A DNA stretch of 59,899 nucleotides, taken from contig JAAOXS010000014.1 of NCBI GenBank assembly GCA_018220985.1, forward strand, positions 1 through 59,899, read 5' to 3'. The notes beneath the pieces are model-generated. The model made no database searches, was not told where the DNA came from, and saw only the letters and a list, made by a program, of their open reading frames with translations. The position numbers were made by a program, and so were the translations under genes. Every line of letters begins with the position of its first letter. The stretch's first letter is position 1. The DNA comes from Nanobdellota archaeon. GTDB taxonomy: Archaea > Nanobdellota > Nanobdellia > PEZQ01. Of this stretch, positions 1 through 59,899 are shown in pieces.

Positions 1-82
1 ATTGTTGTATACCACATGTTGGTTCTTCATTAAGTAGAGAACCAGACCTGTAGTGCTTGCACACCACTAAATGTGCAAAGCC
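1..82. repeat. Edge-truncated copy of a ~100-bp inverted-repeat hairpin element (full copy at 24204-24305)
   Basis: Apical hairpin GGTTCT-TCATTAAGTAG-AGAACC at 21-43. There is a 34-nt arm (38-71) between the loop and the terminal block TGTGCAAAGC (72-81), the same spacing as in the full copy. The left end lies outside the window. Confidence 0.4.
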
Positions 83-175
83 TAAAAAAACTAGCAGTTG
101 GAAATAACAAAAGATTAAATAATTTTTAGACAGATACAATGAATAAGAATAATTTGTTCAGCACCATTTTTTGAA

Positions 176-1006
176 TTATTCAACCATTAATCCAATATGT
201 ACAGCGTGTGTGTTTTTACTTCCCTGATTCAAAAGTTCAAAATTGGTTATATCATCACCAAAGTATTGCTTTTTTCTTACAGGCAAAATAGGAAGTGTTG
301 GAGCTGAAAATTCTTTACAAAACATTTCCGATTTTTCAGAAGGACTCCAAAGCATAGCGTGTTTAAAATCTTCGCTTGAAAAAGTTATTCCAATTTTTTC
401 ATTTACATACTTAATCATACTAGTATCTGGAAGTAAATAAGCCTCATTAGGCGGCATATTGGACGCTTTGATTACTTCTAATAAAGTTATACTATTACCA
501 TCATTTTTACCGTAATAAAAAATACCTTCCTCAACAGGACCATTAACTTTGAAAGCAGGATGCCATCCAATCATAAAAGGCATAACTCGTTCTGATTTAT
601 TTTCAACTGTGAGACTAACAATTAACCCATCATCCACAGGCTCAAATTTTTTCTCAAGACGATAAGACATCCAATTAAGAGTTTCTGGACGATGGCTTCC
701 TTCTTTCCACTTTGAATTTGGAATATTTTTTCCAGAGTATTCTTGATAAAGAACTATCTCCTCAGTTCTTTCAATTTTAAAAGGCATATGTCGTGAAATT
801 CCATGCTGATCCAAAACAAATTCTGACTCCCCAACTTGAACTAAATTATTAAGAACAGGACCGAATACAGGAAAACAAACTATCTCTGAATTTGACCAGC
901 CAGGACCATTATAGTTAGAAGCTCCGCCAGGATGAAAAAACTCAACACCTTCATGGATAAGACTTACTAATTGCCCTGAAGATGAAAAATCGATTTTGGG
1001 TTTCAT
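176..1006 (-). CDS. Aldose 1-epimerase / galactose mutarotase-like family protein
   Basis: 276-aa ORF. By eye it has family-like motifs (FPVFGP, DQHGISRH, GWHPAFKV). Family-level call only. Confidence 0.55.
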   Translation of the reverse strand: MKPKIDFSSSGQLVSLIHEGVEFFHPGGASNYNGPGWSNSEIVCFPVFGPVLNNLVQVGESEFVLDQHGISRHMPFKIERTEEIVLYQEYSGKNIPNSKWKEGSHRPETLNWMSYRLEKKFEPVDDGLIVSLTVENKSERVMPFMIGWHPAFKVNGPVEEGIFYYGKNDGNSITLLEVIKASNMPPNEAYLLPDTSMIKYVNEKIGITFSSEDFKHAMLWSPSEKSEMFCKEFSAPTLPILPVRKKQYFGDDITNFELLNQGSKNTHAVHIGLMVE

Positions 1007-1092
1007 AACAATGAAAATAATAATTTATTTTTTAAGTATTTCGTAATTAGATTTACTAATACTTAATTTTAAGTTTATTAACACATAACCCC

Positions 1093-1100
1093 AAAAAAAA
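1093..1100 (-). terminator. Oligo-T (T8) tract just downstream of the EF-2 stop codon
   Basis: A8 on the plus strand gives T8 on the coding strand, 7 nt after the stop. Archaeal RNAP terminates at oligo-T. Confidence 0.35.
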
Positions 1101-1106
1101 CTGTGT

Positions 1107-3287: not shown

Positions 3288-3330
3288 AACAAAAAAAATC
3301 AAGAAAGAATGATTTTATAAGAGTAGCGGT

Positions 3331-3753
3331 TTACATCCCACTACTACCAAATCTTTCAGCGCCACGATTAGTTTCTGATAATTCTTTAACAACTAAAGGT
3401 TCAACAATGCTAACGGGCTGTACAAGTAATTGAGCAATCCTATCCCCTTTCAAAATTTTGATTTCCTCAGCCCCTAAGTTTACTGCAATAACTTTCAGTT
3501 CGCCGCGATAATTACTATCAATAACGCCAGCAAGCGTGTGTAAACCATGCTTAAAAGACCATCCGCCCCTATCCCAAAATAGTCCAACAAAGTTTTTAGG
3601 AATTTCACAAGCAATGCCAGTACCAATTGATTTACGCTTACCTGGTGATAAAACTAATTCTTCATCACTATGCAAATCAAGACCTGCATCACCTTCCCTG
3701 GACTTTTTAGGAATTTTCGCTGACTCGGATAAAATTTTGAACTTAACAATCAT
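3331..3753 (-). CDS. dut: dUTP diphosphatase (trimeric dUTPase)
   Basis: 140 aa with GDAGLDL, GVIDSNYRGE and the C-terminal RFGSSG motif. Confidence 0.85.
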   Translation of the reverse strand: MIVKFKILSESAKIPKKSREGDAGLDLHSDEELVLSPGKRKSIGTGIACEIPKNFVGLFWDRGGWSFKHGLHTLAGVIDSNYRGELKVIAVNLGAEEIKILKGDRIAQLLVQPVSIVEPLVVKELSETNRGAERFGSSGM

Positions 3754-3817
3754 AAATAAACAATTTAGTTACATATTATAAAAATTATGTAAATAATAAC
3801 ATACAAATAAGCATTAA

Positions 3818-4051
3818 CAAAAAATCTTTATAATAATACTTTCACAGGAAAAAAACTACTTTTTCGGACTACCTGAAAACCTAATACTTAACAAAACACA
3901 AATAACTGTTAATTATGTAAAAGTCGGTGAATTTGGTTATCCTAGTGATAGTGTAGAAATAATAGAGATAAATAATTCTCTTAAACAAACAATATTCAAG
4001 CAGTATGGAATAGAACTGGATGGGATAATAACAGGAACGTATCCGCTTTAA
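3818..4051 (+). pseudogene. Start-less 77-codon open frame, a possible gene remnant
   Basis: Stop-free from 3818 to the TAA at 4049-4051 in an AT-rich spacer. There is no in-frame ATG, GTG or TTG. The translation looks protein-like (..GLPENLILNKTQITVNYVKVGEFGYPSDSVEIIEINNSLKQTIFKQYGIELDGIITGTYPL). Confidence 0.2.
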
Positions 4052-4720
4052 TTATCGACTAGCAGCTGCCTGTCTTTCAGCTTCAGTTTTTTTTGTAATT
4101 GCAAAACTCATATTATCATTTTTAGCGGAATTCATAATCTCACTTGCAAGAGCTTGACCAGCAGAAGTTTTTGACTTAGTGCACTTCATGTAAGCTCCCT
4201 GAGTAATCCAACGCAATGATAAATCAACACGTCTTTGAGGAGCTGTGTCAACGGCTTTCGGATGACGAATACCACCATACTCAATATTCGTAACTTCCTC
4301 CATAGGAGCTGAATTCTCAATAGCTATAACCAATACTTGTAATGGATTCTTCTTAGTTTTAGATTCAATAATTTCAAAAGCGCTCATACAATTCTTAAAA
4401 TTTGAATTGAACTTACCTGAATTCCTACCTGAAGAAAAATTATGCTTCTTACCTTTATGCCCTGAAACCATCATCTTACAAATTAAACGCTCAACAACAT
4501 GCATATCCTCACTCTTCCAGAAACGCTTAGTTTCCTGCCTGCCAAAATTACGAGGAACAATGATAGGCTTAAGATTAATGTACGATTTCAACGCTGGATC
4601 GCGAATATTAACATTATTAGAATACTTATTAAATAATAAAATAGAATTATCAACAAACTCTTCTTCAACTACTTCTTTCTCAACAACTTCATTCTTAACA
4701 GCTTCTTTACTCTCCACCAT
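4052..4720 (-). CDS. rps7: 30S ribosomal protein S7 (uS7) with an acidic N-terminal extension
   Basis: Conserved uS7 core (..VERLICKMMVSGHKGKKH.., ..AIENSAPMEEV..) and synteny with rps12. Confidence 0.9.
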   Translation of the reverse strand: MVESKEAVKNEVVEKEVVEEEFVDNSILLFNKYSNNVNIRDPALKSYINLKPIIVPRNFGRQETKRFWKSEDMHVVERLICKMMVSGHKGKKHNFSSGRNSGKFNSNFKNCMSAFEIIESKTKKNPLQVLVIAIENSAPMEEVTNIEYGGIRHPKAVDTAPQRRVDLSLRWITQGAYMKCTKSKTSAGQALASEIMNSAKNDNMSFAITKKTEAERQAAASR

Positions 4721-4721
4721 T

Positions 4722-5159
4722 TTACTTATTAGGCTTCTCCTTCTTACCCTTAACTAATTGATCTAAACTAATACCTTGAACTTTAACAACCTTATATTTA
4801 ACACCTGGAATGTCACCAGCACTCTTGCCCATGGGACCTCCAATTTTTTGGATCATGACATTATCGTGCTCATCAACATATTTTAAAGCACCTTCACCAG
4901 GCATGAACGCTGTAACAGTCTTACCGTTCTTGATAAGTTGAACTACAGCGCACTTTCTTAAACCAGAATGGGGCTGTTTACACTCAACATTCTTCTTTTT
5001 AAGAACAATACCAGAAGCCATAGGCGCGCCTTCAAGTGCATCATACTTTCTCCAACCACCTGAACTTTTTAATTTAGAACCTTTTCTTTTGAATTTGAAC
5101 TGTTTTCTTCTTTTCAGTAACTTCTTACCAGCCATTAATCCATTAGACTTCTTAACCAT
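4722..5159 (-). CDS. rps12: 30S ribosomal protein S12 (uS12)
   Basis: 145 aa with a typical archaeal uS12 sequence (..[31 protein letters not shown]..). It is 1 nt upstream of rps7. Confidence 0.9.
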
Positions 5160-5207
5160 AACAACAAACCAAAGAACATTTACTTTAAAAAGGTTATCAT
5201 TTACAAA

Positions 5208-5978
5208 TTAATTTCGCCTATTAAACGCTAAAGCAGCTATTATTACAGTAAAAACCGTAAAACCAACAACAACTAACACGTCAAGAACAGGGTTAAAAAA
5301 AGAAACTCCGAGAATAAGATATCTTAACAAATCAACACCATATGTTAACGGGTCAAGTTTAGTTAACAAACTCAACCAACTTGGAAGATTATCAATAGGA
5401 AATAAAGCTCCTGAAAGCATGAAAACAGGCATTACGAAAAGATTAATCATTAATTGAAAACCTTGAACTGACTCGAAAAAAGTTGCTATCATCATGCCCA
5501 AACCCAAAAAACCCGCGCTAATCAACAACATTGTAAAAATGATAAAAGGAATGTTAATTAAAGGAAAACTAATGTCAAATAAGATTGCAAGCATAAGGAT
5601 TAAACAACCTTGAATAAGACTTGTAAAACTATTTCCTAAAACTTTACCAACAACAATGCTTACCCTACTAATCGGCGCCACCAGCATTTCTTTCATAAAA
5701 CCATATTGTTTATCCACAAGAATGTTCACGCCAGCACCAATAGACCTCATAAAAAGGTTTAACGCAATCACGCCTGGAAACACGAAAGCAGTGTAATTAG
5801 TAAATGTAGAATTCGAAAACTTCATGGACGCGCCAAGACCTGTACCAAAAATTACGAGCCAGAATAAAGGCATAAAAATACTTGAAAAAACACGAGAACG
5901 AGCTCTGAAAAAACGTTTAACTTCTCGAATAGCAATTCCGTAAACAGCTCTGAACTCACTTATCAATGTCCATGCCAC
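5208..5978 (-). CDS. ABC-2 type transporter permease
   Basis: 256 aa with about 6 hydrophobic segments. It overlaps the upstream ABC ATPase gene by 16 nt. Confidence 0.75.
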   Translation of the reverse strand: MAWTLISEFRAVYGIAIREVKRFFRARSRVFSSIFMPLFWLVIFGTGLGASMKFSNSTFTNYTAFVFPGVIALNLFMRSIGAGVNILVDKQYGFMKEMLVAPISRVSIVVGKVLGNSFTSLIQGCLILMLAILFDISFPLINIPFIIFTMLLISAGFLGLGMMIATFFESVQGFQLMINLFVMPVFMLSGALFPIDNLPSWLSLLTKLDPLTYGVDLLRYLILGVSFFNPVLDVLVVVGFTVFTVIIAALAFNRRN

Positions 5979-6931
5979 CTCATACGATTCTTAACCCAAT
6001 CATTATCATTTGCTTTCTCATCCCTAATTTGTTTACCAGTAAGAGAAAGAAAAACGTCATTCAAAGAAGGTTTCTTAATATTAACGCTTTTAATAATAAC
6101 ACCTTTTTTTGATAATTTAGATAATATTTGAGCAAGTTTTTTATCAGCATTTCTAACACTTAAATGAACACGACCATCAAAATTTTTGGAATTCTTCAAA
6201 ATTTTAACAGCGCTTTCTGAATCGTCAACGTCAAGAATTATAACATCCCCTTTCAAATCATTCTTCAGTTTTGAAACAGAATCTAACGCAATGATTTTGC
6301 CATTATCAATAATCCCCACCATATCACATAATAGTTCAGCTTCCTCCATGTAATGCGTTGTTAAAAGAATCGTCATCTTCTTCTCTTTTTTTAATTTAAG
6401 AATGTAATCCCAAATCTTACTGCGCGTCTGAGGGTCCAACCCCAGAGTTGGCTCGTCCAAAAATAGTACGCGCGGATGGTGGATAAGTCCGCGCGCGATT
6501 TCTAAACGACGCTTCATCCCACCACTAAAATTTTTAACTTGGATATTACGCTTATCACTTAAATCAACAAGCTCTAAAACATCACTAATCCTACTCATTG
6601 TTTCAGAACGTGGAACATTATACAATCTCGCGTGCAAAATCAAGTTTTCAAAAGCTGTTAATTCAACATCCAAAGACGGTTCTTGAAAAACAATTCCAAT
6701 ACTTGAACGCACTTTTGAAGAATTAAGGTTAACATCATAACCGCAAACAGTAACATTACCTGAAGATGGTTTTAATAAAGTAGCAAGAATTTTAATAGAA
6801 GTCGTTTTACCAGCACCATTCGGTCCGAGTAAGCCGAAAATTTGTCCTTCACCAATGTTGAAAGAGATTCCATCAACAGCTTTAACTGATTTAAAATGTT
6901 TTTTTAAATCTTTAACAATAATAACTGACAT
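5963..6931 (-). CDS. ABC transporter ATP-binding protein (DrrA/CcmA-like)
   Basis: Walker A GPNGAGKTT, signature FSGGMKRRL, Walker B LFLDEPTLGLD. Confidence 0.85.
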   Translation of the reverse strand: MSVIIVKDLKKHFKSVKAVDGISFNIGEGQIFGLLGPNGAGKTTSIKILATLLKPSSGNVTVCGYDVNLNSSKVRSSIGIVFQEPSLDVELTAFENLILHARLYNVPRSETMSRISDVLELVDLSDKRNIQVKNFSGGMKRRLEIARGLIHHPRVLFLDEPTLGLDPQTRSKIWDYILKLKKEKKMTILLTTHYMEEAELLCDMVGIIDNGKIIALDSVSKLKNDLKGDVIILDVDDSESAVKILKNSKNFDGRVHLSVRNADKKLAQILSKLSKKGVIIKSVNIKKPSLNDVFLSLTGKQIRDEKANDNDWVKNRMRWHGH

Positions 6932-6966
6932 TGAAATAAAAATTACTTAATCAACAATTAAAAAAC

Positions 6967-7380
6967 TTATCCTAATTTTATGGTATCAATATTATGATAG
7001 CGCTGAATAATGTCCAAAGCGTATCTTAATTTACTCCTAACCAAACCCTTATCACTCTTAGGGTTAAGATAAAGAATTTTCTTACCTGAACTATTTTCAC
7101 TAACGTAAGATTTTGAAAGTTCAGCAGGGTGAAAAAGGTTCGCGGCAAACTTTAAAGGATCTTTACTAAACTCTATGATTTCAATTCTTTTACGTAACTT
7201 GTTCTGCAATGAAATCACGTTAACACCTGACTTGCCAATAGCCAAACCTGCCTGACCTTCTTTAACAATGAAAACTACTTTATTAACACTAACAATACAA
7301 TCTTTAACAATTGCGCCAGTAATATTCTCAAATAATGCTACAAAACGCATAGAATCCGTATCCAACTTTATACTAACCAT
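6967..7380 (-). CDS. nusA: Archaeal NusA-like protein (two KH domains)
   Basis: 137 aa with the KH motif LAIGKSGVNV. It occupies the conserved position between rpl30e and rps12. Confidence 0.75.
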   Translation of the reverse strand: MVSIKLDTDSMRFVALFENITGAIVKDCIVSVNKVVFIVKEGQAGLAIGKSGVNVISLQNKLRKRIEIIEFSKDPLKFAANLFHPAELSKSYVSENSSGKKILYLNPKSDKGLVRSKLRYALDIIQRYHNIDTIKLG

Positions 7381-7383
7381 TAT

Positions 7384-11193
<3,810 letters not shown>

Positions 11194-31312: not shown

Positions 31313-31813
31313 TTAAAGAACACGTTCTTTTTCACGGTCCAATCTTTTCCTAATCTTCCTAAGCTGTTGTTCTTGCATTAAAGTTTCTTTAATAACAAGA
31401 GATAACTGATCTAAAAACACACGCGTTTTTTCCTCTTTCTTCTCAAAACTCGCTTTTTCCCTGCGAAGAAAGCTTATTTCCTTCTTAACTTTAGGTAATT
31501 GTTTCTTCTTTTTTTCCAAATCCCGAATCCAATTATCTATTTTCTTTTTCTCTTCAAGCTTTTTCTTTATATTACGCTCATTAACATCAACATTCCTGCT
31601 AAGACGTTCTTTAAGTTCTGTTAAATTCTTTTTTTTAGCTTTTAATTTTACAACACGAGTTTTAACAGTTTCGTAAACTTTCTCCTGCTCGATTCGAGAT
31701 AAATCAATATCCCCCAGCAAACGATTCCTAGTTTCGAATAATTGCTTATCAACATTAGAAATAGATTTTTTTAAAGAATCAATATTATCAAAAATTTTTT
31801 TCTTACTATACAT
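31313..31813 (-). CDS. Basic coiled-coil protein (166 aa, no TM)
   Basis: K/E/R-rich heptad-like sequence. Its start overlaps the upstream giant gene by 8 nt and is preceded by a G7 tract. Confidence 0.6.
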   Translation of the reverse strand: MYSKKKIFDNIDSLKKSISNVDKQLFETRNRLLGDIDLSRIEQEKVYETVKTRVVKLKAKKKNLTELKERLSRNVDVNERNIKKKLEEKKKIDNWIRDLEKKKKQLPKVKKEISFLRREKASFEKKEEKTRVFLDQLSLVIKETLMQEQQLRKIRKRLDREKERVL

Positions 31814-35000: not shown

Positions 35001-38000
35001 TCATTTATGACTCTTTTTATTTTTTCGAACAGCGCGATTTTTAACATGAGTAAGAGTTAATTTATCATACCTTTCAATTTTAACAGTTCTAATTCTAAAT
35101 GTTAAAACAACTATAACACCAAACAAGATTACTACTAAAACCCAAATCAAACTACTTGACGTATCAGAACCTTTAACTTCAAAAGTTCGAGTACTTATCG
35201 CTTCTCTTCCAGCATAAGTTACGAGCGCTTCAAAAGCGTAAACTCCTGAACGCGTTTTTTCAGGAATTCTTAAAACTAATTCTTTATCAACTTGATCTGT
35301 AACAGCAATAGTATCTGTTGATTCAGTAATCAAATTACCTTCTAATGTTTTTGCTGAATAAGTTATTGCAACATCAACAGTTGCTTTAGGACCTCCAATA
35401 TTTAAAATGGTTAGCAGTGCTTTCACGCGCTCACCTGGATTAATAATTATATCCAACAATTCTAAAATGGTATCAAACAAAGGTACAACCAATTTCACAT
35501 GAGTTTCAGTGTTAACATGTTTCTTGTATGTTGGATCAAAACCCGCAATTATTGTTGGCAACACCCATGTTCCACCACCAATAATGCTCACATTCATGGT
35601 AACATTAATCGTGTCACTTTCGTACAAAGTTCCATCCCAAGCAGATTCTAAACCTGTTGAAAAATTGTATTTGTAAATGTCAACGCTTAAACCATCAGGT
35701 AATAATTCAGAAGTACTAGCATATTTTATGTAGTCAGTTCCATCACTAAGCTCTATTATAGTATCATTATTGTATGTTATGTTTAAGTAATCAATGCTTG
35801 CGCCAACAGGTAAATAATCAGCTATGTGAATATCAGTTATGTTCCCACCAACAGCTTTCAGTATAAAAGTTATGCTCGCGTTAAGAGGGTTTACTTCATC
35901 AATGTCTAATGATTTATATGATTTCAAAAATGCGTGAGATGAAGTAATATTCTCCCATAATGAATCAATGTATTGCGTATTATCTGTATTATTTATTGTT
36001 GTGTTCGCGTCAAAAATTTTTGAAACATCCACGTCAAGCTCTGAAGAAATCATAGAATAATAAATCCTAATTTTTTCCGAATCCATTAAGTATGTTCCAA
36101 TATTCGTTTCAGACATATTATAAATGGTAAGATTTATTTCAGTTTCAGGGTCAGCGTCAATATCACTAACTGTAACATCAAAACCCGAACTTAACAAAGT
36201 ATTAGAACTACCAAGATGCCACACATCAACACTACCCTCGCTAGGTGCAGTAAATCCTCCTGGCACTTCATCAATTATTTCAACAAAATAAACTGGGTTA
36301 TTTGAACCATTATTTTCAAGAGTTGTGTTAACATTAATTGTTTCAACAGTTTTTGGTAAAACCCAATTCTGAGAAATGTACTTACTCATTTCCACTGTTA
36401 CAACACGAATTGTTAAATTATACGCTAAATCATTGCTTGGCGAACCGAACTCGCAAGTCGTGTTAATAGTAATATTATAACTACCAGTATCATTAACAGT
36501 TATAGTCCAATTAGGGTAATAACACGAATTGTTAGTAATATTATAAGGCCCATAAGTCCACGCGTCAGGACTCAAATCATCACCATCACCTGTGTAAAAA
36601 AGGATTTTAGGCACGCAATTAGAAATATTACCATTCTCAGAACAAATAGAAGCGTTAACGTAAAAATCATAATTTTTAGTTATGTAAGAATCATTTACGG
36701 GCGTTGATATATTCGTTGTTGAATTACCAATCTCATCTAATTCAATTGGAGGATCTCCAGGCTCTAATCCTTTAACAGTTATTACATTATTCACTTTATC
36801 AATTGAAAAATTGGTTAATTCCATCCAATTACCATTACACACACGATTGTTAAAATCCCAATCATCACACTTGAAAGGTCGTAAATTATCCTCGGAACTA
36901 ATGCTACTTATCTTACTTGAATAACTTATGTTAGCCTCAGCGTAATCAAAATTCAAAGATAAATTGAACATTACCATCTCAACACCTGTTAAGCTGCCCA
37001 TGTTTTCATCATCATTTGGTGAATCATCAAAACTGATTTTATCAGCGAACGACTCGTTAATTGACACGTTATAAACTGTGATGTTCAATTTATTATTAAA
37101 AGCGTTGATAACCAAATCATAATATCCTTCATCCAAACGATTATTGTAATCACCACTAAAATCAGTGTCAAAATCGTATTCTACTGTTTGAGTTCCCAGC
37201 TCATAAAAAGTGAAATTTACTAGTACTGCAGTACTATCACCATCCTCTAAAGTTCCGCTCAACAAGTGGGAAGGAATTATGGTGATAGTAACATTACTAG
37301 TACTATTATCACCAATCTCATTATATGAAGAAGTAAAATTAACATCCAATTCATACGCGTCATTGATTGTTCCTGTAACATTCAGAGACCAATTAAGTTG
37401 GCACACATCCTGATAAACCAAAACACCGCAAGACTGAGGATTAGAATCACCTGTATAAAACGGAATTGCTTCACTTGTGCTTACAATAGTGTCAGGTGTT
37501 GTTATAGAAGCATTATACCTTACACCACCACTAACAGAACCGCATTTCGCCCCACTTGTCGTTCCACCACAAACAATAGTTGTGTTAAACCATTTCATAG
37601 TTATATTACCCCAAGTAATATCATCAGATGGTGTTTGTAAAGAAACTTGAAGTTCGCCATGCTCGTAAACAGTATACAATTGTGTTTCAGTAACGTTCCA
37701 CTCATCATTTGAATCATTAGCCCAAATTTTCCACTCAACAGTTTTACCCCAGCACTGACTTGGCCAAGACTTGTTAATCCAAGTTAAATTACTCGCAGGC
37801 ATTTCAACCCATGATTCATTAGCGCTTACTGTTGAACAATCCACTTCGGAAGCGTTTACAAAAAATTTGTAACCACTTAATGCAGTATTATCACTCCATT
37901 CAGCTTCGTGCTGGACAACTTCATTTTCAAAAACGTCAGAATTGTTAGTCTGAACATTAGTTGATTGGGGTGGTGGAGGATCTATTACGTGATTAAACTC

Positions 38001-39116
38001 TAAAAAAGCGATTTCAGAATCGTCGTTAACAATTCTTAAATCAAAAGTATTATGACTACCTTCCATTCCTATTAAATAAATTTTATAATACTTTTCAGAA
38101 ATGATAATTGGGAATTCAGTGATTTTTTTAGAAGTGTTAAAATAATAAACTTCTATTAATGTGTTAAAACTCTGATTGTTACGAACATAAACTGTAATAT
38201 CATTAATTGCTGTTAAGTTTTGTTCAAAAATAACTCTTAAAAATTCATTCTCATAAATTGGCTCTGACCACGCGTCATCCAATTCTTTAACTTCTTCAAA
38301 AACATTAGAAATTAAAGAATAATTTTCATCCAAGTGCATTGCATTTGTTATTTCAATTACAACTCTGAATGTTTGATTAATCAAGTAAGGAATAATCCAA
38401 GATAATACAGAATTATTCAAAGAAATGTTGTAATCAGAATTGTTAGTGATGTCAACGGGGGAATTGTTACTAATTTCATAAATTCTAAATCTTGTTTTAG
38501 TTGGAACATTAGTGCTAACAGAAACGTTTTCATAACCTTCAAAAACAGAACTAACTAACACGTTTTTAACTAAGTTGGAATTATTAATTAACAAAAATTC
38601 CTTCTTAACAGGTGCTGGAGTGGAATACACAATTTCAAAATAATCATTAAACCTGACAAGTGAAATATTAACTGCTCCTTCAGGAACTTTTTTCAAAGCG
38701 AAAGTTTCATTAAAAGCTTTAACTCTTGCAATCCAATTAACAGGTTTCTCTACAATAATTGAAGAATGGCTGTAATTTATTAATTTAGAATCGTCAATGG
38801 CGTATGAAAAACTAGTGGTGGCGTTAAGAACATTAAATAATATAATGTTGTGCGTTTCATTGTATGGGGAAACAACGCCACCACCAGAGAATAATTCAAT
38901 AACATTAGTTGGTATGAAAAACTCAACGGGTTTGTTTAATAACATTCTGAAAGAATTGTTAATCAACCCATTTTCACGCGCTGAAGAAAAATTAATTGTG
39001 TTATTAAGATTTTTAGTAAAAAAACCAGTAATGGAACCTGATAAATCAAAAATTAATAAAGCTAAGAATAATACGGTAAGCACTATTTTGACCCAAGGTC
39101 GTAAAATCTTCCCCAT
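35001..39116 (-). CDS. Giant surface protein P3 (1371 aa): N-terminal signal anchor, C-terminal TM plus basic tail
   Basis: N-terminal VKIVLTVLFLALLIF, C-terminal TM LIWVLVVILFGVIVVL. It shares AGFDP and the membrane-proximal module with P1/P2. Sequon-rich. Confidence 0.7.
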   Translation of the reverse strand: MGKILRPWVKIVLTVLFLALLIFDLSGSITGFFTKNLNNTINFSSARENGLINNSFRMLLNKPVEFFIPTNVIELFSGGGVVSPYNETHNIILFNVLNATTSFSYAIDDSKLINYSHSSIIVEKPVNWIARVKAFNETFALKKVPEGAVNISLVRFNDYFEIVYSTPAPVKKEFLLINNSNLVKNVLVSSVFEGYENVSVSTNVPTKTRFRIYEISNNSPVDITNNSDYNISLNNSVLSWIIPYLINQTFRVVIEITNAMHLDENYSLISNVFEEVKELDDAWSEPIYENEFLRVIFEQNLTAINDITVYVRNNQSFNTLIEVYYFNTSKKITEFPIIISEKYYKIYLIGMEGSHNTFDLRIVNDDSEIAFLEFNHVIDPPPPQSTNVQTNNSDVFENEVVQHEAEWSDNTALSGYKFFVNASEVDCSTVSANESWVEMPASNLTWINKSWPSQCWGKTVEWKIWANDSNDEWNVTETQLYTVYEHGELQVSLQTPSDDITWGNITMKWFNTTIVCGGTTSGAKCGSVSGGVRYNASITTPDTIVSTSEAIPFYTGDSNPQSCGVLVYQDVCQLNWSLNVTGTINDAYELDVNFTSSYNEIGDNSTSNVTITIIPSHLLSGTLEDGDSTAVLVNFTFYELGTQTVEYDFDTDFSGDYNNRLDEGYYDLVINAFNNKLNITVYNVSINESFADKISFDDSPNDDENMGSLTGVEMVMFNLSLNFDYAEANISYSSKISSISSEDNLRPFKCDDWDFNNRVCNGNWMELTNFSIDKVNNVITVKGLEPGDPPIELDEIGNSTTNISTPVNDSYITKNYDFYVNASICSENGNISNCVPKILFYTGDGDDLSPDAWTYGPYNITNNSCYYPNWTITVNDTGSYNITINTTCEFGSPSNDLAYNLTIRVVTVEMSKYISQNWVLPKTVETINVNTTLENNGSNNPVYFVEIIDEVPGGFTAPSEGSVDVWHLGSSNTLLSSGFDVTVSDIDADPETEINLTIYNMSETNIGTYLMDSEKIRIYYSMISSELDVDVSKIFDANTTINNTDNTQYIDSLWENITSSHAFLKSYKSLDIDEVNPLNASITFILKAVGGNITDIHIADYLPVGASIDYLNITYNNDTIIELSDGTDYIKYASTSELLPDGLSVDIYKYNFSTGLESAWDGTLYESDTINVTMNVSIIGGGTWVLPTIIAGFDPTYKKHVNTETHVKLVVPLFDTILELLDIIINPGERVKALLTILNIGGPKATVDVAITYSAKTLEGNLITESTDTIAVTDQVDKELVLRIPEKTRSGVYAFEALVTYAGREAISTRTFEVKGSDTSSSLIWVLVVILFGVIVVLTFRIRTVKIERYDKLTLTHVKNRAVRKNKKSHK

Positions 39117-51911: not shown

Positions 51912-53045
51912 TTACTTGAATTGAGCTGAAACATCACTAACGGCGTCACAAACTTCAACTGGCTCTCCGCCAGTAAGAGCGCAAATACCAGCAGTCAAAA
52001 CTTCAAACTCAGCTTCCTCACCAATAGCTGTTCCAGCACCCGGACGCATATAAGAACAACCAAGAACAAAAAAGGGTGTGCCAGAACCACCATACTTGCT
52101 CATAACAGATAAATGAGGAGACTCTGTTTCAACATCTATTTCAACAGCGTGAACAACAACGTAATCACTTTCAAAACTAGCTTCAACAAAACTATTACCA
52201 CCATCATAATCTATCCATTCACCGAACTGTGAAGTCGCGTTCACAAAAACAGGTCTCTCCCAAGTACAATAAACACACGTAGTGCCACTAAATAAGTAAA
52301 CAACGGGCTTACCATCTTCAACGCACACGTCATCACCTGTTTTCAAAAAATTACCCGGTAAAGGATAGCCTGTGATTTCACCAGTGATTAAATCCCTATA
52401 AATAAAACCTGTAATAATGGAATTACCTCTAAAAACGTACCAACCATCACTTTCCACACTACCAATCTGAGCGTAAACATCAGTGAAAATTTGAGAATAA
52501 TTCGACACTAACACAGGAGAAATTAAAACAACAGGAACCTCAGTAATAGAATACTTATCAATTAATGCCCTGCCTTCAGCAGAGTTCAAATCATACTCTT
52601 CAACAACACCAATATTAACACCAACTTGACCTAAAACCGAATTATGAATGTCAAGAGGCGAACAATCCGCACAGGAAACATCAGTTAAACGAATAATGTT
52701 AACAGGACTAATAACAGGAACAACAGAAACAGGCGTTTCAGTATTATCAACTCCAGTGAAATAACCAGTAACATCATTAAAACCGTGAGTTACAACACTA
52801 GCTCCAATCAAGAAAACAAGCAAGATAGAAGTGTAAAACCACATGTTAGACGGAAAATTGAAAACCAAATCTTCACCATCACGAGCAATAAATTTATCTT
52901 TTTTAATTTTTGGTTTTCTATCAAAAGGAGTTTCAGCAGGCTTAACAATTTCAGGCTTAACAATTTCTTCTTTAATTTCTTTAACTTCTTCAACCTTTTT
53001 TTCAGGCTTATCATCCTTAAATTCGATAATAGGACTATCACTCAT
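51912..53045 (-). CDS. Membrane-anchored protein with two extracytoplasmic thioredoxin-like CxxC regions
   Basis: K/E-rich N-terminus and a TM (WFYTSILLVFLIGASVV), followed by CADC and CVYC motifs. The second motif is followed by GTPFFVLG (cis-Pro loop-like). Confidence 0.5.
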   Translation of the reverse strand: MSDSPIIEFKDDKPEKKVEEVKEIKEEIVKPEIVKPAETPFDRKPKIKKDKFIARDGEDLVFNFPSNMWFYTSILLVFLIGASVVTHGFNDVTGYFTGVDNTETPVSVVPVISPVNIIRLTDVSCADCSPLDIHNSVLGQVGVNIGVVEEYDLNSAEGRALIDKYSITEVPVVLISPVLVSNYSQIFTDVYAQIGSVESDGWYVFRGNSIITGFIYRDLITGEITGYPLPGNFLKTGDDVCVEDGKPVVYLFSGTTCVYCTWERPVFVNATSQFGEWIDYDGGNSFVEASFESDYVVVHAVEIDVETESPHLSVMSKYGGSGTPFFVLGCSYMRPGAGTAIGEEAEFEVLTAGICALTGGEPVEVCDAVSDVSAQFK

Positions 53046-53785
53046 ACTTCACAACCCCCATTAACTTCTGAAGTAATACTTTCAATAATTTCAGAACAGC
53101 CACTTAAAGAAGAGTCAATAGAACAAATAGCCTGCTTATAACCATCAACACTCCTAACACCTTGATACGAAACCCCATTAAAGAATAGTGTTGGAGAACC
53201 CCTAACTTCCAAAGAATCGCCAAGAGCCTTATCAACACTTAATAAATCAATAGCTTCCGTGTCAAGGCAAGTTTGGATTTTATTAACATTAACACCTGTT
53301 TTCACAGCACAACCAGACCAGCATTCCTCAACATTAGCTGAAGAACACTCACTATTAATACAACCAACATAGTCCCACCACGTATCCTCATCATAATACT
53401 GCCAAATGCACAACTGACGGACTCCTTCATTCAATTCACTAATACCATGCATAGAACAATAAACATTCTCTTCATCAATACAATAATTAGGAAAACCACT
53501 CTGATAATTAGAATAAATAACGAAATGAGGCTCAAAAAGAACGTCATTCTTGAAAACGTCATAAACTGGTTTTAAAATTTCCTCTGCTTGAGAACCAAAA
53601 GGGCAAAAACTCATAACAAAAAAATCAACTTTAACACTTCTATTTGGATGCAATTCCTTAGTAGCGAAGCCAGTTAATGGATTAACGCTAAACCCCTGTG
53701 TTAAAATACTACCTACAAAAACACAACCTAAAAGAATTGCTATGTAAAACCATTTATCTTTCATGTAAAACCATTTATCTTTCAT
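53042..53785 (-). CDS. Extracytoplasmic DsbA/GILT-like thioredoxin-fold protein
   Basis: N-terminal anchor and FVMSFCPFGSQ in the active-site position. ..CSMHGISELNEGVRQLC.. is GILT-like and ..RGSPTLFFNG.. resembles the DsbA cis-Pro loop. Start is ambiguous (53785 or 53764) because of a 21-bp duplication. Confidence 0.5.
   Translation of the reverse strand: MKDKWFYMKDKWFYIAILLGCVFVGSILTQGFSVNPLTGFATKELHPNRSVKVDFFVMSFCPFGSQAEEILKPVYDVFKNDVLFEPHFVIYSNYQSGFPNYCIDEENVYCSMHGISELNEGVRQLCIWQYYDEDTWWDYVGCINSECSSANVEECWSGCAVKTGVNVNKIQTCLDTEAIDLLSVDKALGDSLEVRGSPTLFFNGVSYQGVRSVDGYKQAICSIDSSLSGCSEIIESITSEVNGGCEV
53744..53785 (-). repeat. Perfect 21-bp tandem duplication including the start codon (MKDKWFY x2)
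   Basis: GTAAAACCATTTATCTTTCAT occurs twice in tandem on the plus strand. Confidence 0.85.
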
Positions 53786-55107: not shown

Positions 55108-57906
55108 TTATGGTTTTTTAATTAATTTTTGCTTAGCATCATCAAAACTTGCAAGAGAATAATTGCCAGGCTCATATTCTTGGCGTAATCTATGCAAGTT
55201 TACAAGTATATCTTTAACATCCCCAGTAACATGACTTTCATATTCAACATTCTTTTTTATTTCAGGTTTTGTTAACTTATCAGGTTCATTCTTGCTGAAA
55301 GTTACGTATTTAACAACTTTTCCAGGAGGACCAAGATTAGCTTCTGTTTTTTTCTCAACACTCTCCACTTTTTCCTCTTTTTTCACTTCATCTTTCTGAA
55401 CATCTTCAATTTCTTTCTGAACAGGTTCTGGAATAGATTTCTCTTCTTGTTTAACTTCTTTTTCAAGTTCTTCAATTGGTTTCTCCGCTTTTTCTTCACT
55501 TATCTGTTTTTTAACAGGTTCTGAAGATTCTTCAGTTTTCTCAGCAGATTTATCAGAAGATTTTGTTTCTTCAGGTTTGTTCTCAGTTAAGTTCTCTTCA
55601 TTTTTAGGAGGTTCAGATGGTTTATCAGCAGGTTCGGAAGGTTCCGAGCTTTTTTCTTCAGTTTTTTCTTCAGGTTTCTGAGGTTCGGAAGGTGTTTGAA
55701 CATGTGTTTTCTCTGTTTTCGGGTTTTCAGCAGGTGTTTCAATAGGTTTTGGAGCTTCAACAGGTGTTGGCGGTGCAGCACTTGGCGCTGGAATTACTTG
55801 TTCAGTTAGCGTTTCAGCAGGTTTTACTTCTGCAGGCGCGTTTTCCCCTGTTTTCTCTTCAGGTTTTGGTTCTTCCCCAGTTTTAACTGGTTTTCTTACT
55901 TTTTTACCAGTAAAATCATTGCACTGCCTGTAAAGCATTTCCAAATCACGCCTATCAGTTCTCCCCCTATCAAGAACGGAGATGATTTTACCTTCTAATT
56001 CCTCAAAAGAACGTTTTTTCTCATCTTTTATGCGTCTTAACTCGTTATACGCTTTTTCAGAAATTAAAGCATCGTCATACTGCTCATTAAGTATTCTCAG
56101 ATCATGTTTTAACAATTCTTCCTTCTCATTAATTAAATCAAGAACTTCAGCAAAATAATCCCTATCACTGCCAGTTAATTCCTTATCACTGACCATGTCA
56201 ATCTCATCTTCAACGCGGGAAAATTTATTATCCATTTTCGCTTTAAACTCGGCTAATTCCGTTTTTGACGTGTAATCAGCCATTCTCGTTTTTAAATTAT
56301 CCATTGCTTGCAATAATTCAAAAGATAAACCATCAATACGATTAACTTTATCAACGAAAACGGGCAAATCAGAAAATTTTCGTTCAACTTGCAAATACAT
56401 ATCCTCAACCTTGTTCGCAAGTCTTTGAATTATTTTTTCAGCATCCTCAATCTTAATTAATTTCTCACCAACATCCTTACCAACATCAATTAATAGTTTT
56501 AAATTACGCAAATCCTCAAAAACCTCTGAAATTTTATCAAACTTTTTAAGCAAATCAGTAACAGTCCCTTCCAATGTTTTAAAAGAATTATCAATACCAC
56601 TTAAACGATTAGTTGTTTCACGCTCAAACTTTGCAATAGTTTGCGGGTTTATTTCAGCAACATTCGCGTTTAACGTTTCAATTTTTAATTGCATTTCACC
56701 AAAACTCTTTTCACGAGTGGTTACTTGCCCCTTAACCTCACTTAATCTTTCAGAAAAACCATCTAATTTCTCATTCAAACCTTTAAAACGCTCTTCAGCA
56801 GACAAAATTTTCGTTCTTAATTCCTCAAATGCTTTTTCATACTCAATCATTTTATCAGATGGCATTGAAGAAACAGATTCAACAGTGGGAGCGGGTGCTG
56901 AAACAGGAGCTGAAGGAAGAGGTGTTGCTGGTTGAGCAGGAGTGGTTGCTTGAGGTATAGCTTGAGTTGCTACGGCAGGTTCAGCAGTTGTTTTTTTACC
57001 TTTCTGGTCAGGTTCTTCTAATTCGTCCTCAGAATTTATTTTCTCCAAAGCTTGAGGTGTGAATTCCATAATTGTTCGTGACTCTTCTTTCTCCATATCA
57101 GGAGTTTTAACAGGCATGTCAACAATGCTTGTCCCATCAATAAAACCAAGCGTGTCCAAATACTTTTTTAAAACATCTAACTCAATGGACATTAAGCCAT
57201 TCTGGCTTAGAATAGAATTAATTTCTGAAAGCGTCGTGTCTAATGGGAAGAAAAAATTACCTGCACGACTCCAGTAAGCTTTTTCTTTCTGGTTTTTTGC
57301 ATAAACGTTTTTCAAAAGCTTTCTTAAAGCGTTTAAAGGACCTAAACCAGTATAATCCTCATCAACATCACTTTTCTTTTTAGGTTTTTCTTCTTTTTGC
57401 TCAGAATCCTTTTTTTCATCTTTCTCTTCATCTGATTTTTTCTCTTTTTCAGGTTCGGAGGGTTTAGTATCCTCTTTCACACTTTCGTCTTGTTTTTTTA
57501 CATTTTTTTCATCAGATTTCGAATCTTCAGTGTCCTCTTTTTTCTTTTCAGATTCAGTATTAGAAAGTTCTATTTCTTTAGTTTCCTCACCCATACTTTC
57601 TTTAGGCGCTTTTAGAGTTTTAAGACTTTTGAAAGCGTTCAACACTTCTTCATAACTCTTACTTGAAATCAAACCTTTACTATGCTGTTCTTCAAGCTCT
57701 CGGAGAATTGGTGAATCACGCAATTCAACACTCTTTCTTAAATTTTCTTTTCTTTCAATGCTTTCAGAATCCTTTTTTTCTAAAAATTTCTGCTCAAAAC
57801 TATGAATTTTTTGCAATAAACGTTTTGGAGCTTTATCAACAAAAACATCCTCCTTAACATCCTCAAAATTATCCTCTTTTTTCTTAATGAAAGGCAGTTC
57901 AATCAT
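55108..57906 (-). CDS. 932-aa acidic coiled-coil / low-complexity protein, no TM
   Basis: Central heptad-rich region flanked by E/K/P/S/T low-complexity regions, with three copies of a ~25-aa SHOCT-like motif. It starts 9 nt after the stop of the upstream ATPase gene. Confidence 0.6.
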   Translation of the reverse strand: MIELPFIKKKEDNFEDVKEDVFVDKAPKRLLQKIHSFEQKFLEKKDSESIERKENLRKSVELRDSPILRELEEQHSKGLISSKSYEEVLNAFKSLKTLKAPKESMGEETKEIELSNTESEKKKEDTEDSKSDEKNVKKQDESVKEDTKPSEPEKEKKSDEEKDEKKDSEQKEEKPKKKSDVDEDYTGLGPLNALRKLLKNVYAKNQKEKAYWSRAGNFFFPLDTTLSEINSILSQNGLMSIELDVLKKYLDTLGFIDGTSIVDMPVKTPDMEKEESRTIMEFTPQALEKINSEDELEEPDQKGKKTTAEPAVATQAIPQATTPAQPATPLPSAPVSAPAPTVESVSSMPSDKMIEYEKAFEELRTKILSAEERFKGLNEKLDGFSERLSEVKGQVTTREKSFGEMQLKIETLNANVAEINPQTIAKFERETTNRLSGIDNSFKTLEGTVTDLLKKFDKISEVFEDLRNLKLLIDVGKDVGEKLIKIEDAEKIIQRLANKVEDMYLQVERKFSDLPVFVDKVNRIDGLSFELLQAMDNLKTRMADYTSKTELAEFKAKMDNKFSRVEDEIDMVSDKELTGSDRDYFAEVLDLINEKEELLKHDLRILNEQYDDALISEKAYNELRRIKDEKKRSFEELEGKIISVLDRGRTDRRDLEMLYRQCNDFTGKKVRKPVKTGEEPKPEEKTGENAPAEVKPAETLTEQVIPAPSAAPPTPVEAPKPIETPAENPKTEKTHVQTPSEPQKPEEKTEEKSSEPSEPADKPSEPPKNEENLTENKPEETKSSDKSAEKTEESSEPVKKQISEEKAEKPIEELEKEVKQEEKSIPEPVQKEIEDVQKDEVKKEEKVESVEKKTEANLGPPGKVVKYVTFSKNEPDKLTKPEIKKNVEYESHVTGDVKDILVNLHRLRQEYEPGNYSLASFDDAKQKLIKKP

Positions 57907-57915
57907 TTAGTTTAT

Positions 57916-59899
57916 TCACCCCCCTAAACCCTTTAACGTTTTATCAACTGAAGTGAAATATGTTTCAGCCATTTTCAATTGACTGTCCCTCATTTTACCA
58001 ACAGCAAGTTTGAATTCTAATTCAACATCATAAGTATTTACTCCCTTAGCTTTTAATTGAGTTATCCTACTTTCCAAAGCACGCTTAGTCTTACCAACAC
58101 GGAAGTAATCCTGTAATTGCACATCAGTTAACCTTCGCACACCATGTTTTATTGGCTTGAAAGTTATGAAATAAGGCTTTCCATTATTGTACTTAGGATT
58201 TTGGAATAAACCAGTACCAACTTCCATTTTTGCAATGTAATCAGAATACACCACACCATACTTTTGTTTAACCCTATTAATATCACCCTCATACTTTGTA
58301 CGTAATTGAACCTCACTGCCAATGTTAGCACGAATCGCCCCTCTAAAATCAATCAAAACCTGTGAAATCATGATTATACCCACACCCCACTTACGGAACT
58401 CACGCGCACCTCTTTCCAAAGCAGTGTAACCACCCTTACCACCATACTTTGGCAAAAGCCTGTGAACCTCATCATAAACAATTTCCAAACGCAATTGTTT
58501 GGACTCGTCAAGTTGAGCGTCGAAAACGCTTCCAATAGTGTTCTGAACAAACTTATCTAAATCACCGCCTTTCAACTTATTCATGGTAAAAATGAACATT
58601 GTTCCTTTATTCTTTTCATCCAAAAATTGTTTAATATCAATTTTCATATCAGCGTTTTCAACATCTATTATTTCAACTTTGTAACGTTTAGCATCCTCTT
58701 TTTTCATGCCGAATTTAGGGTATAACGCGTACAAATTCTCATCTTCAAGTTTTTGAGTAAACCCTGTCCACTGAAGAGTAGGATCGAAAACAATAACTGG
58801 CACGTCATTATCCAACACGTCCTCAATCCAGCCCATTATGCTAAAAGTTTTACCACTACCAGTTCCACCAGCTGCAAGAGCGTGAACCATTAACTGATCC
58901 ATTTCAAGATGCGCAAATTTATCACTCTCAGCAATTCTACCCAAAAACAAAGTTCGAGGCCCGGGCTTAGGCATTTTAGAATGGTCAACAGGGAACACGT
59001 ATTTTGCGTGCGCGAGCGAACGAGTTTTGTAAACAGCGTAAACCTTTCTGAACACTATTAATCCAACAATACCAGAGATTAGTAAATAAGTAATCCAACT
59101 ACTTATGATAAACCTAATAAACAATAATATGAACGGTGTTTCAACAACAGTAAATGAAGTAAGACTGCTTGCAATTCTATCATCATAATGCGCGACGGCT
59201 TCAATTATGTAAATACCCGGAGCAGTTGTTAAAGGTATTTTCTCCTCTTTAGATAAATCCAAAGTATTTTCTAAAGCGAGAGTTTCTTCACGAATAATAA
59301 TAAACTCGCCAGTTTCAGCATTTGTTATTGTATAATTAATCCAAACATCAACTTTCTTTGTTTCACCAAGATTGAACAATGAAATCTTAAATTTCAAATT
59401 ATCACCAGGCCCAACTTCAGGCAATAGAGTAGCTATTTTAACGTCAAGTAACGCTTCCTTTCTAGGAACAACTTTTAAAGTTGTAGGAACAGTTCTCTCA
59501 ACATCACCCAATGTAAGCGTAATATCCCCTGTGTAAGTTCCAGTACGCGTAGCTGGCAAAGTATAATACTTGATTTTAACTGTTTTTGTTGATTTAGCTG
59601 GAATTGTAAAACTCGTTTCCTCTATTTGCACATGCTGCCACACATCACCTCTAACACTAATTGTTCCACTTACAGAAAATATCTTATTATTTGTTATATC
59701 TATTGACGCTATTTTGAAATCGCCTGGCGTAAGTTCAAATTCTATTGAAGACTTTGAAACAACATAATCTGACGGGTAAACATCAGGCTCTGGCGCAGGC
59801 TCAAATGTCACACCCCCCGCACCACCTCCAGCTTCTTGAATAATCACTACAGGTACTGTTGCACCACCATCATCACCAGTACCACCACCATCATCACCA
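57916..59899 (-). CDS. Membrane-anchored HerA/FtsK-superfamily P-loop ATPase (DUF87-like) with extracellular Ig-like N-terminal domains; 5' end outside the window
   Basis: The frame is open to the window edge (..GDDGGGTGDDGGATVPVV..). Two beta-rich Ig/CARDB-like segments precede the TM FILLFIRFIISSWITYLLISGIVGLIVF. Then come Walker A AAGGTGSGKT, Walker B LEIVYDEVHRL and IIMISQ. Confidence 0.7.
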   Translation of the reverse strand, partial: GDDGGGTGDDGGATVPVVIIQEAGGGAGGVTFEPAPEPDVYPSDYVVSKSSIEFELTPGDFKIASIDITNNKIFSVSGTISVRGDVWQHVQIEETSFTIPAKSTKTVKIKYYTLPATRTGTYTGDITLTLGDVERTVPTTLKVVPRKEALLDVKIATLLPEVGPGDNLKFKISLFNLGETKKVDVWINYTITNAETGEFIIIREETLALENTLDLSKEEKIPLTTAPGIYIIEAVAHYDDRIASSLTSFTVVETPFILLFIRFIISSWITYLLISGIVGLIVFRKVYAVYKTRSLAHAKYVFPVDHSKMPKPGPRTLFLGRIAESDKFAHLEMDQLMVHALAAGGTGSGKTFSIMGWIEDVLDNDVPVIVFDPTLQWTGFTQKLEDENLYALYPKFGMKKEDAKRYKVEIIDVENADMKIDIKQFLDEKNKGTMFIFTMNKLKGGDLDKFVQNTIGSVFDAQLDESKQLRLEIVYDEVHRLLPKYGGKGGYTALERGAREFRKWGVGIIMISQVLIDFRGAIRANIGSEVQLRTKYEGDINRVKQKYGVVYSDYIAKMEVGTGLFQNPKYNNGKPYFITFKPIKHGVRRLTDVQLQDYFRVGKTKRALESRITQLKAKGVNTYDVELEFKLAVGKMRDSQLKMAETYFTSVDKTLKGLGG

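Follow-up and report, generated by a model that had tools for sequence, protein, structure and literature searches.

A HerA-like ATPase module in a Nanobdellota archaeon as the likely C-terminal end of a giant SPEARE-family surface protein

What kind of protein joins extracellular immunoglobulin (Ig)-like domains to a cytoplasmic P-loop ATPase in one polypeptide, and what could such an ATPase do beneath the surface of a DPANN archaeon? These questions are raised by an incomplete gene at the end of contig JAAOXS010000014.1 from a Nanobdellota archaeon (assembly GCA_018220985.1; hereinafter, the window denotes the whole analyzed stretch of 59,899 nucleotides (nt)). Translation of this region yields a single open reading frame (ORF) of 660 codons on the minus strand (57916–59898), with the first stop codon, TGA, at 57916–57918; the initial annotation of this DNA already noted the truncation at the window edge, where the frame is still open, and the 5' part of the gene lies beyond the window. 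The ORF is very likely the 3' end of a gene for a giant surface protein of the SPEARE family.

Identity, spread and length of the gene

A BLASTP comparison of the window protein with the last 662 amino acids (aa) of the SPEARE protein of Candidatus (Ca.) Nanohaloarchaeum antarcticus (NAR1_1133; the 5,998-aa sequence was taken from the supporting information of Hamm et al. 2019, PMC6642349) aligns 625 positions at 35% identity, with an E-value of 3e-114, and the two sequences remain collinear all the way from the first Ig domain to the last helix. By this direct alignment, the module that the initial annotation took for part of an undescribed system is the known SPEARE C-terminal unit (PMC6642349; PMC10266531). 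In cultured nanohaloarchaea, “giant membrane-anchored extracellular proteins” have been described that consist of a Sec signal peptide, about 75 Ig-like domains, a transmembrane (TM) segment, a cytosolic “VirB4/TraG-like” ATPase and a terminal coiled coil; these proteins were identified with the SPEAREs of Hamm et al. 2019, and a role in contact or secretion was put forward for them (PMC10266531). According to Hamm et al., the intracellular part, annotated as type III restriction-like, is the most conserved SPEARE region, SPEARE protein is expressed in culture, and SPEARE-like sequences are present in Woesearchaeota, Aenigmarchaeota, Micrarchaeota and Altiarchaeales (PMC6642349). In the same study, the extracellular and the cytoplasmic portions turned up in different size fractions. 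The architecture of the family is thus already published, and what is new here, namely a conserved coiled-coil partner and the placement of the ATPase near HerA, is modest.

The C-terminal units of the nanohaloarchaeal SPEAREs (NAR1_1133 and SVXNc_0300, a 9,409-aa protein of Ca. Nanohalococcus occultus) are homologous to that of the window protein, and, like these SPEAREs, the relatives of the window protein carry giant ectodomains, including a NEW3/NPCBM_assoc domain. Unlike the nanohaloarchaea, the window organism is non-halophile-like, with a low GC content (about 33% in the window), and is nearest to Woesearchaeota/Nanoarchaeia; the gene downstream in the window encodes a coiled-coil protein, whereas a VirB4-like ATPase is reported at that position in nanohaloarchaea (PMC10266531).

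The family is far wider than the nanohaloarchaea, in which it was first named, and the window protein is a fairly divergent member of it. A word-indexed protein search identifies 256 matches, most of them with more than 90% query coverage, from Aenigmarchaeota, Woesearchaeota, Pacearchaeota, Nanoarchaeota/Nanopusillaceae, Altiarchaeota and a few metagenome-assembled genomes (MAGs) labeled otherwise; an exhaustive search of a representative library detects 2,210 matches at E ≤ 1e-3, including 351 at E ≤ 1e-30; and a scan of GTDB species genomes confirms at least 561 loci. Homologs are also found in MAGs labeled, as deposited, Nanoarchaeota/Nanopusillaceae (P0043; loci L008, L010 and L016) and Parvarchaeota (L009 and L013), lineages from which SPEARE-like sequences were reported to be absent (PMC6642349). 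The library protein P0003 was considered as a candidate for RLG14629.1, a SPEARE match listed by Hamm et al.; this assignment was rejected because P0003 is MCX8179663.1.

For comparison of gene lengths and neighborhoods, 86 loci were fetched and, together with the window, make a set of 87 in which ORFs were called anew. In 48 of the 87 the ATPase frame is open over at least 3,095 aa, up to the limit of the fetched DNA, and in the closest relatives from GTDB species-representative genomes (54–58% identity) it is open over at least 3,146 aa. Full-length relatives in the representative library are 4,000–7,878 aa long and carry the query module at their very C-terminal end (e.g., P0121, 4,658 aa, 47% identity, and P0240, 7,878 aa). 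An exact look-up of the 932-aa coiled-coil protein encoded next to the ATPase gene had no match; two syntenic loci were reached via its homologs P0265 and P0266 (55% and 51% identical to it, respectively). The first of these loci, L087, has a gene that runs into the contig start and encodes at least 4,065 aa; its final 646 aa share 81% identity with the window protein, and it is followed, as in the window, by genes for the coiled-coil protein, a thioredoxin-like protein and a cytidylate kinase, in that order. In the second, L088, the identity is 82% over the last 293 aa. Given this synteny, the window gene is almost certainly the giant form, encoding more than 4,000 aa. As judged by the relatives, the N-terminal part beyond the window most likely spans several thousand aa and is built of glycosylated adhesion domains; 189 N-x-S/T sequons and the NEW3/NPCBM_assoc domain are seen in the 3,331 aa of the L087 protein that are visible. 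The surface module that the initial annotation saw fused to the ATPase is therefore real as far as its Ig ectodomains go, but the part seen in the window is only the last ~250 ectodomain residues of a probable protein of more than 4,000 aa.

Public gene calls often shorten giant genes, so that database lengths of 600–1,100 aa are often artefacts. For example, P0008 in L004 is called as a 969-aa protein (6381–9290) but lies inside a 3,095-aa open frame (3–9290), with spurious small opposite-strand genes called across the remainder of the giant frame. In L001 (52% identity), a 725-aa ORF that is open at its 5' end (1–2178) stops 20 nt before a 1,082-aa ATPase ORF (2198–5446); this pair could reflect a giant gene that is split or carries a frameshift, or else an error of assembly.

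Domain organization and placement of the ATPase

An AlphaFold2 (AF2) model of the 660-residue fragment, built with an alignment of 60 homologs as the input, has a mean predicted local distance difference test score (pLDDT) of 89.2. Together with hydropathy, hidden Markov model (HMM) searches and Foldseek comparisons, it delineates the following features.

57916..59898, minus strand: 3' end (660 codons and the stop) of the probable SPEARE-type giant surface protein gene (alignment to the family, synteny with L087)
59779..59898, minus strand: Gly/Asp-rich disordered linker, aa 1–40 (AF2 pLDDT below 50)
59470..59766, minus strand: Ig-like beta-sandwich 1, aa 45–143, predicted extracellular (AF2 strands with pLDDT above 90; family HMM, E = 2e-33)
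59146..59448, minus strand: Ig-like beta-sandwich 2, aa 151–251, membrane-proximal, NEW3/CARDB-like (AF2, Foldseek, family HMM)
59008..59133, minus strand: juxtamembrane amphipathic segment and single TM helix, aa 256–297, followed by a basic cluster (hydropathy, K/R counts, AF2, family alignment)
58159..58953, minus strand: predicted cytoplasmic HerA-like P-loop ATPase core of the RecA type, aa 316–580 (sub-threshold Pfam matches, PDB profile search, Foldseek)
58846..58875, minus strand: Walker A motif AAGGTGSGKT, aa 342–351 (A343, G344, G347, G349 and K350 invariant)
58462..58485, minus strand: Walker B motif EIVYDEVH, aa 472–479, followed by invariant R480 (D476, E477, H479 and R480 invariant)
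58360..58377, minus strand: sensor strand IIMISQ, aa 508–513, after the invariant REFRKWG (E500, F501, R502, W504, G505, S512 and Q513 invariant)
57922..58125, minus strand: C-terminal three-helix/coiled-coil tail, aa 592–659 (AF2 pLDDT ~95)

In homologs, the same G-rich linker is preceded by a Cys-rich module of the pattern CGNGxCE...CP. Foldseek matches the first beta-sandwich to Vpr fibril, WxLIP and RbmA folds; the domain type of the second one also terminates the 1371-aa protein encoded elsewhere in the window (E = 8e-18). The sequence IPLTTAPGIYIIEAVAHYDDRIASSLTSFTVV is found in the translated ORF, and a segment of the form IPLTTAPGIY...SFTVV lies directly ahead of the hydrophobic stretch. 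In the model, the juxtamembrane and TM region forms helices at 256–266 and 268–297, and the tail consists of helices 592–617, 623–637 and 641–659. The hydropathy plot has its sole peak at aa 256–283, flanked by four K/R residues on the C-terminal side vs one on the N-terminal side, and in a nanohaloarchaeal homolog the amphipathic first half of the hydrophobic stretch is polar; these observations point to one membrane pass. Accordingly, a single crossing of the membrane is predicted, which leaves the Ig domains on the outer side and the P-loop in the cytoplasm. AF2 and hydropathy thus agree with the order proposed in the initial annotation (a linker and two Ig-like beta domains outside, one TM segment and a cytoplasmic ATPase), the three ATPase motifs quoted there are all located in the translation, and, with only one hydrophobic peak, a two-pass topology that would place the P-loop outside is not indicated.

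In the alignment of 60 diverse homologs, the Walker A motif (GxxGxGKT), the DPTxQW motif, the Walker B motif DEvHR, the REFRKWG motif and the SQ sensor are invariant, so that the hallmarks of the FtsK/HerA superfamily (Walker A, Walker B, arginine motif and polar sensor) are all present. This invariance indicates that the domain is constrained and presumably an active NTPase. Assignment within the superfamily comes from profile and structure comparisons. The window protein itself scores below the threshold against Pfam DUF87 (21.5 bits, with the threshold at 23.2) and HerA_C, and reaches 16 bits against the NCBIfam HerA model NF040937 (cut-off 800); precomputed matches to PF01935 are present on virtually all homologs and to PF05872 on most. 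A search of all PDB sequences with the family profile identifies seven HerA-family entries with E-values from 3e-8 to 1.5e-4, among them 4D2I (3e-8), Sir2-HerA, DUF4297-HerA, HerA-NurA and YjgR. The same search yields FtsK at 0.07, DotL at 0.16 and TrwB at 2.4, and VirB4 is not among its matches. A Foldseek search with the ATPase part of the model retrieves HerA rings at about 1e-10. All these enzymes belong to one superfamily; within it, profile and model comparisons place the predicted ATPase nearer to HerA than to TrwB, FtsK or VirB4. Given that HerA entries lead both rankings, the label “HerA/DUF87-like”, which the initial annotation had also used, is more accurate than the published “VirB4/TraG-like”. 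A literature search pairing DPANN with HerA, FtsK or DUF87 found nothing relevant.

The window protein shares with HerA proteins (Sulfolobus 4D2I; DUF87/DUF853; Sir2-HerA and DUF4297-HerA) the Walker A and B motifs, the R-K-x-G motif and the SQ sensor. Unlike these proteins, it is predicted to be membrane-anchored, with extracellular domains, and lacks a HAS-barrel: in the AF2 model, only a short beta-hairpin (316–332) is found between the TM helix and Walker A. No NurA, Mre11 or Rad50 genes are present in the window or in the annotated neighborhoods of the homologs examined, and Sir2 and DUF4297 partners are likewise missing from window-type loci. Thus, in agreement with the initial annotation, the protein is not a canonical HerA repair helicase.

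The coiled-coil partner and the gene neighborhood

Two neighboring genes follow the ATPase gene on the same strand.

55108..57906, minus strand: 932-aa coiled-coil partner, predicted to be cytoplasmic, no TM segment, with LxxLExxYxxGxISxxxY motifs; starts 9 nt past the ATPase stop codon
53828..54733, minus strand: 301-aa protein after the ATPase/coiled-coil pair, shared by the closest relatives only, no Pfam match

The coiled-coil protein, which the initial annotation singled out as the partner of the ATPase, is operonic with the ATPase gene and near-universal. With an HMM iterated from its conserved core (aa 336–650), a same-strand downstream homolog is detected in 82 of the 87 loci (in 78 of them already in the first, single-sequence round) and is directly adjacent in 68; the loci that lack it are contig ends and two short-form loci. 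To our knowledge, conservation of this gene pair has not been previously reported for SPEARE ATPases. A TM-like segment is absent in 83 of 86 partner proteins. The repeated motif LxxLExxYxxGxISxxxY, of about 20 residues, occurs 1.49 times per 1,000 aa in the partner set vs 0.01–0.06 elsewhere; its matches to Pfam SHOCT and SHOCT_2 are sub-threshold (E of 0.012–0.3), so it is called SHOCT-like only. The AF2 model of the partner, based on a three-sequence alignment, is all-helical, with a pLDDT of 56.

In at least 20 loci, mostly from Aenigmarchaeota, the coiled-coil gene is followed by a gene for a second large surface protein of 1,100–2,050 aa, with an N-terminal signal peptide or TM segment and a C-terminal TM segment, and in 18 of 20 such proteins the LxxLExxYxxGxISxxxY motif lies in the cytoplasmic tail, ~40 residues from the C-terminus (e.g., L023, 11475–17453; such loci also include L018, L020, L025, L028, L032, L039 and L058). 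In 22 of the 87 loci, a gene for a ParA/MinD-like ATPase of ~250 aa follows the SPEARE gene on the same strand, at a distance of 1.4–7 kb (e.g., L002, 9308–10066, and L004, 11871–12608). The initial annotation had noted that no NurA, pilin, VirB or Ced-like partner is visible in the window; this stands, VirB6/VirB3/pilin-like genes are absent from both the window and the annotated neighborhoods, and no CedA-like polytopic neighbor is conserved across the 87 loci.

Homologs of the 301-aa protein, the N-terminal part of which resembles a winged-helix motif by eye, are encoded in L001, L007, L008, L009 and L012, and probably in L088, as judged by size and position only. Two adjacent genes for thioredoxin/DsbA-like proteins of 247 and 377 aa follow in the window (51912–53785, minus strand) and are syntenic with the SPEARE locus in L087 (16001–17817) and L088 (4852–6833); their products may be involved in disulfide formation in Cys-rich surface proteins. 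Scans for sigma-70 promoters and terminators remain at the background level, and such models are not applicable to archaea. The window as a whole is chromosomal archaeal DNA, with genes for split RpoA and RpoB subunits, EF-2, S7, TFB and NucS. Its EF-2 (1107–3302, minus strand) is at most 59% identical to that of any GTDB species representative scanned; the nearest matches come from Woesearchaeota/Nanoarchaeia MAGs, with no close representative among the genomes scanned.

The initial annotation further tied the ATPase gene to a cluster of three surface proteins in the same window (P1–P3, of 1371, 1097 and 1062 aa), suggesting that all three carry the same domain ahead of the TM segment. This applies to one of them.

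35070..35480, minus strand: paralogous anchor module (membrane-proximal Ig domain and TM segment) at the C-terminus of the 1371-aa protein, no ATPase (BLASTP, family HMM)

The 1371-aa protein (35001–39116, minus strand) matches the family Ig+TM profile over aa 1213–1349 with an E-value of 7e-21 and is also matched by BLASTP (29% identity, E = 5e-8), whereas the 1097-aa and 1062-aa proteins show no match to this profile or by BLASTP. A second ectodomain module (aa ~575–780) is common to the 1371-aa protein and SPEARE giants. Given that the 1371-aa protein ends in a short basic tail rather than an ATPase, it looks like an ATPase-less paralog. The claimed functional link to the cluster does not hold beyond this shared anchor domain: the genes are 19–30 kb away, and no functional or syntenic tie between the cluster and the ATPase gene was found. 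A 166-aa, highly charged coiled-coil ORF without a Pfam family is located between the 1097-aa and 1062-aa genes (31313–31813, minus strand).

Possible roles of the ATPase

Membrane-anchored motors of the FtsK/HerA superfamily move DNA or protein at envelope machines. The combination of a SPEARE tail with a ring translocase is, taken as a whole, probably the best explanation for the window gene. The mechanistic part of it, that the protein is a polymer-translocating motor at the host contact, is the likeliest of the roles considered but is put forward tentatively and with somewhat less than even confidence. Under this proposal, the ATPase would form a ring under the membrane, like other enzymes of the superfamily, and the ring would bundle several ectodomain stalks with their TM helices and Ig collars; ATP would be spent on polymer transport (of DNA or unfolded protein) through the membrane of the symbiont where it meets the host, and the cotranscribed cytoplasmic coiled-coil protein would act as an adaptor or scaffold. 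The oligomeric state, the substrate, the direction of transport and the involvement of the host are all suggested by analogy with coupling proteins, FtsK or CedB. Indeed, VirD4/TrwB, VirB4, FtsK/SpoIIIE and CedB combine an N-terminal membrane anchor with a cytoplasmic ring motor in a design similar to that of the window protein; unlike them, window-type proteins have one TM segment, a huge extracellular part and no cognate channel partners, and their sequence similarity to FtsK, DotL and TrwB is, by the E-values given above, much weaker than that to HerA. A role at the contact with a host, as suggested in the initial annotation, coincides with the literature proposal (PMC10266531).

Several considerations weigh against this account. 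Complete short forms of 722–787 aa exist, sometimes in one genome alongside the giant form, and consist of their own signal peptide, a Cys-rich module, a G-rich linker and the same C-terminal unit; because they keep this unit, the part visible in the window is the conserved functional core. The giant N-terminus of the window protein lies beyond the window and is extrapolated from relatives. No conserved polytopic membrane protein, and in particular no channel protein, is encoded near the gene across the 87 loci, so that a conducting pore would need to be made of the single-pass helices. Finally, rings of the HerA family can also be scaffolds or switches rather than translocases; Sir2-HerA and DUF4297-HerA, both found among the best Foldseek matches, are examples.

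The latter two points equally count toward a different function, in which nothing passes through the ring: ATP-driven assembly and disassembly of the ring, a putative coiled-coil scaffold and ParA/MinD-dependent positioning would cluster and anchor the adhesins, such that the giant proteins are gathered, positioned or tensioned into an attachment organelle. We regard such a device, the main rival of the translocating motor, as possible, although rather doubtful. It is compatible with the presence of the partner, generally without a TM segment, in nearly all loci, with the occurrence of the partner motif near the C-termini of at least 18 co-encoded second surface proteins, and with the 22 loci that include a ParA/MinD-like gene; the defense systems in which HerA rings serve as scaffolds are among the top structural matches. 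Conversely, strict conservation is seen for the catalytic and arginine motifs that pumping ATPases typically have, the likeness of the shared motif to SHOCT is sub-threshold, and the model of the partner is poor.

The translocating motor could also be part of a type IV secretion-like system, in which a VirB4/TraG-type ATPase would inject effectors into the host via a “straw” formed by the giant protein. This reading is published for nanohaloarchaea, two cultured representatives of which possess a second VirB4-like ATPase (PF03135) directly downstream (PMC10266531). Furthermore, some homologs have precomputed matches to TrwB_AAD_bind, T4SS-DNA_transf and AAA_10, and the NCBIfam TraC model yields a weak match (E = 6e-4; 17.7 bits, with the cut-off at 567). 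The PDB profile search described above, however, ranks HerA entries well ahead of FtsK, DotL and TrwB and does not retrieve VirB4; a second FtsK/HerA-type ATPase is found nearby in only one of the 87 loci; VirB6, VirB3 and pilin-like genes are missing, as noted above; and the window protein has no Pfam match to PF03135 or to the all-alpha domain of coupling proteins. Membership in a system of this type appears unlikely.

Still lower is the probability that the intracellular part functions in DNA uptake or degradation, either as a type III restriction-like enzyme that breaks down DNA taken in from the host, as first proposed for SPEARE, or as the motor of a Ced-like importer. Canonical HerA, which functions in DNA-end resection, and FtsK do translocate DNA, and there are weak matches to Pfam ResIII (E = 0.0027; 18.1 bits, with the cut-off at 22.5) and NCBIfam CedD (E = 0.008, 14.9 bits against 600), the former reproducing the match that lay behind the type III restriction-like annotation by Hamm et al. 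(PMC6642349). The ResIII match, however, is below the threshold and limited to the generic P-loop region, neither the AF2 model nor the published re-analysis (PMC10266531) reveals a nuclease domain, and a conserved CedA-like polytopic partner is missing from the 87 loci. An ordinary HerA repair helicase artefactually joined to a surface protein, for which the only argument is that, among solved structures, its nearest relatives are HerA proteins, is effectively ruled out, as is a canonical HerA, by the uninterrupted reading frame, the same collinear fusion in at least 561 loci, with most matches covering more than 90% of the query, and the absence of a HAS-barrel and of NurA/Mre11/Rad50 neighbors.

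Returning to the proposed translocating motor, a broader and speculative hypothesis, which we consider doubtful but possible, is that the SPEARE C-terminal unit (the Ig collar, the TM segment and the HerA-like ATPase) forms the core of a self-contained contact apparatus of DPANN archaea that is unrelated to type IV secretion. This apparatus would include the coiled-coil protein and, in many lineages, the second surface protein and the ParA/MinD-like ATPase, and several giant adhesins would be coupled to one motor through a shared tail “code” recognized by the coiled-coil protein. One more divergent member of the family is routine in itself. Among the candidate host-interaction proteins of DPANN archaea, however, the SPEARE-type giants stand out most, and their wide spread, the HerA-like nature of the ATPase and the near-universal partner narrow the hypotheses on the role of this ATPase.

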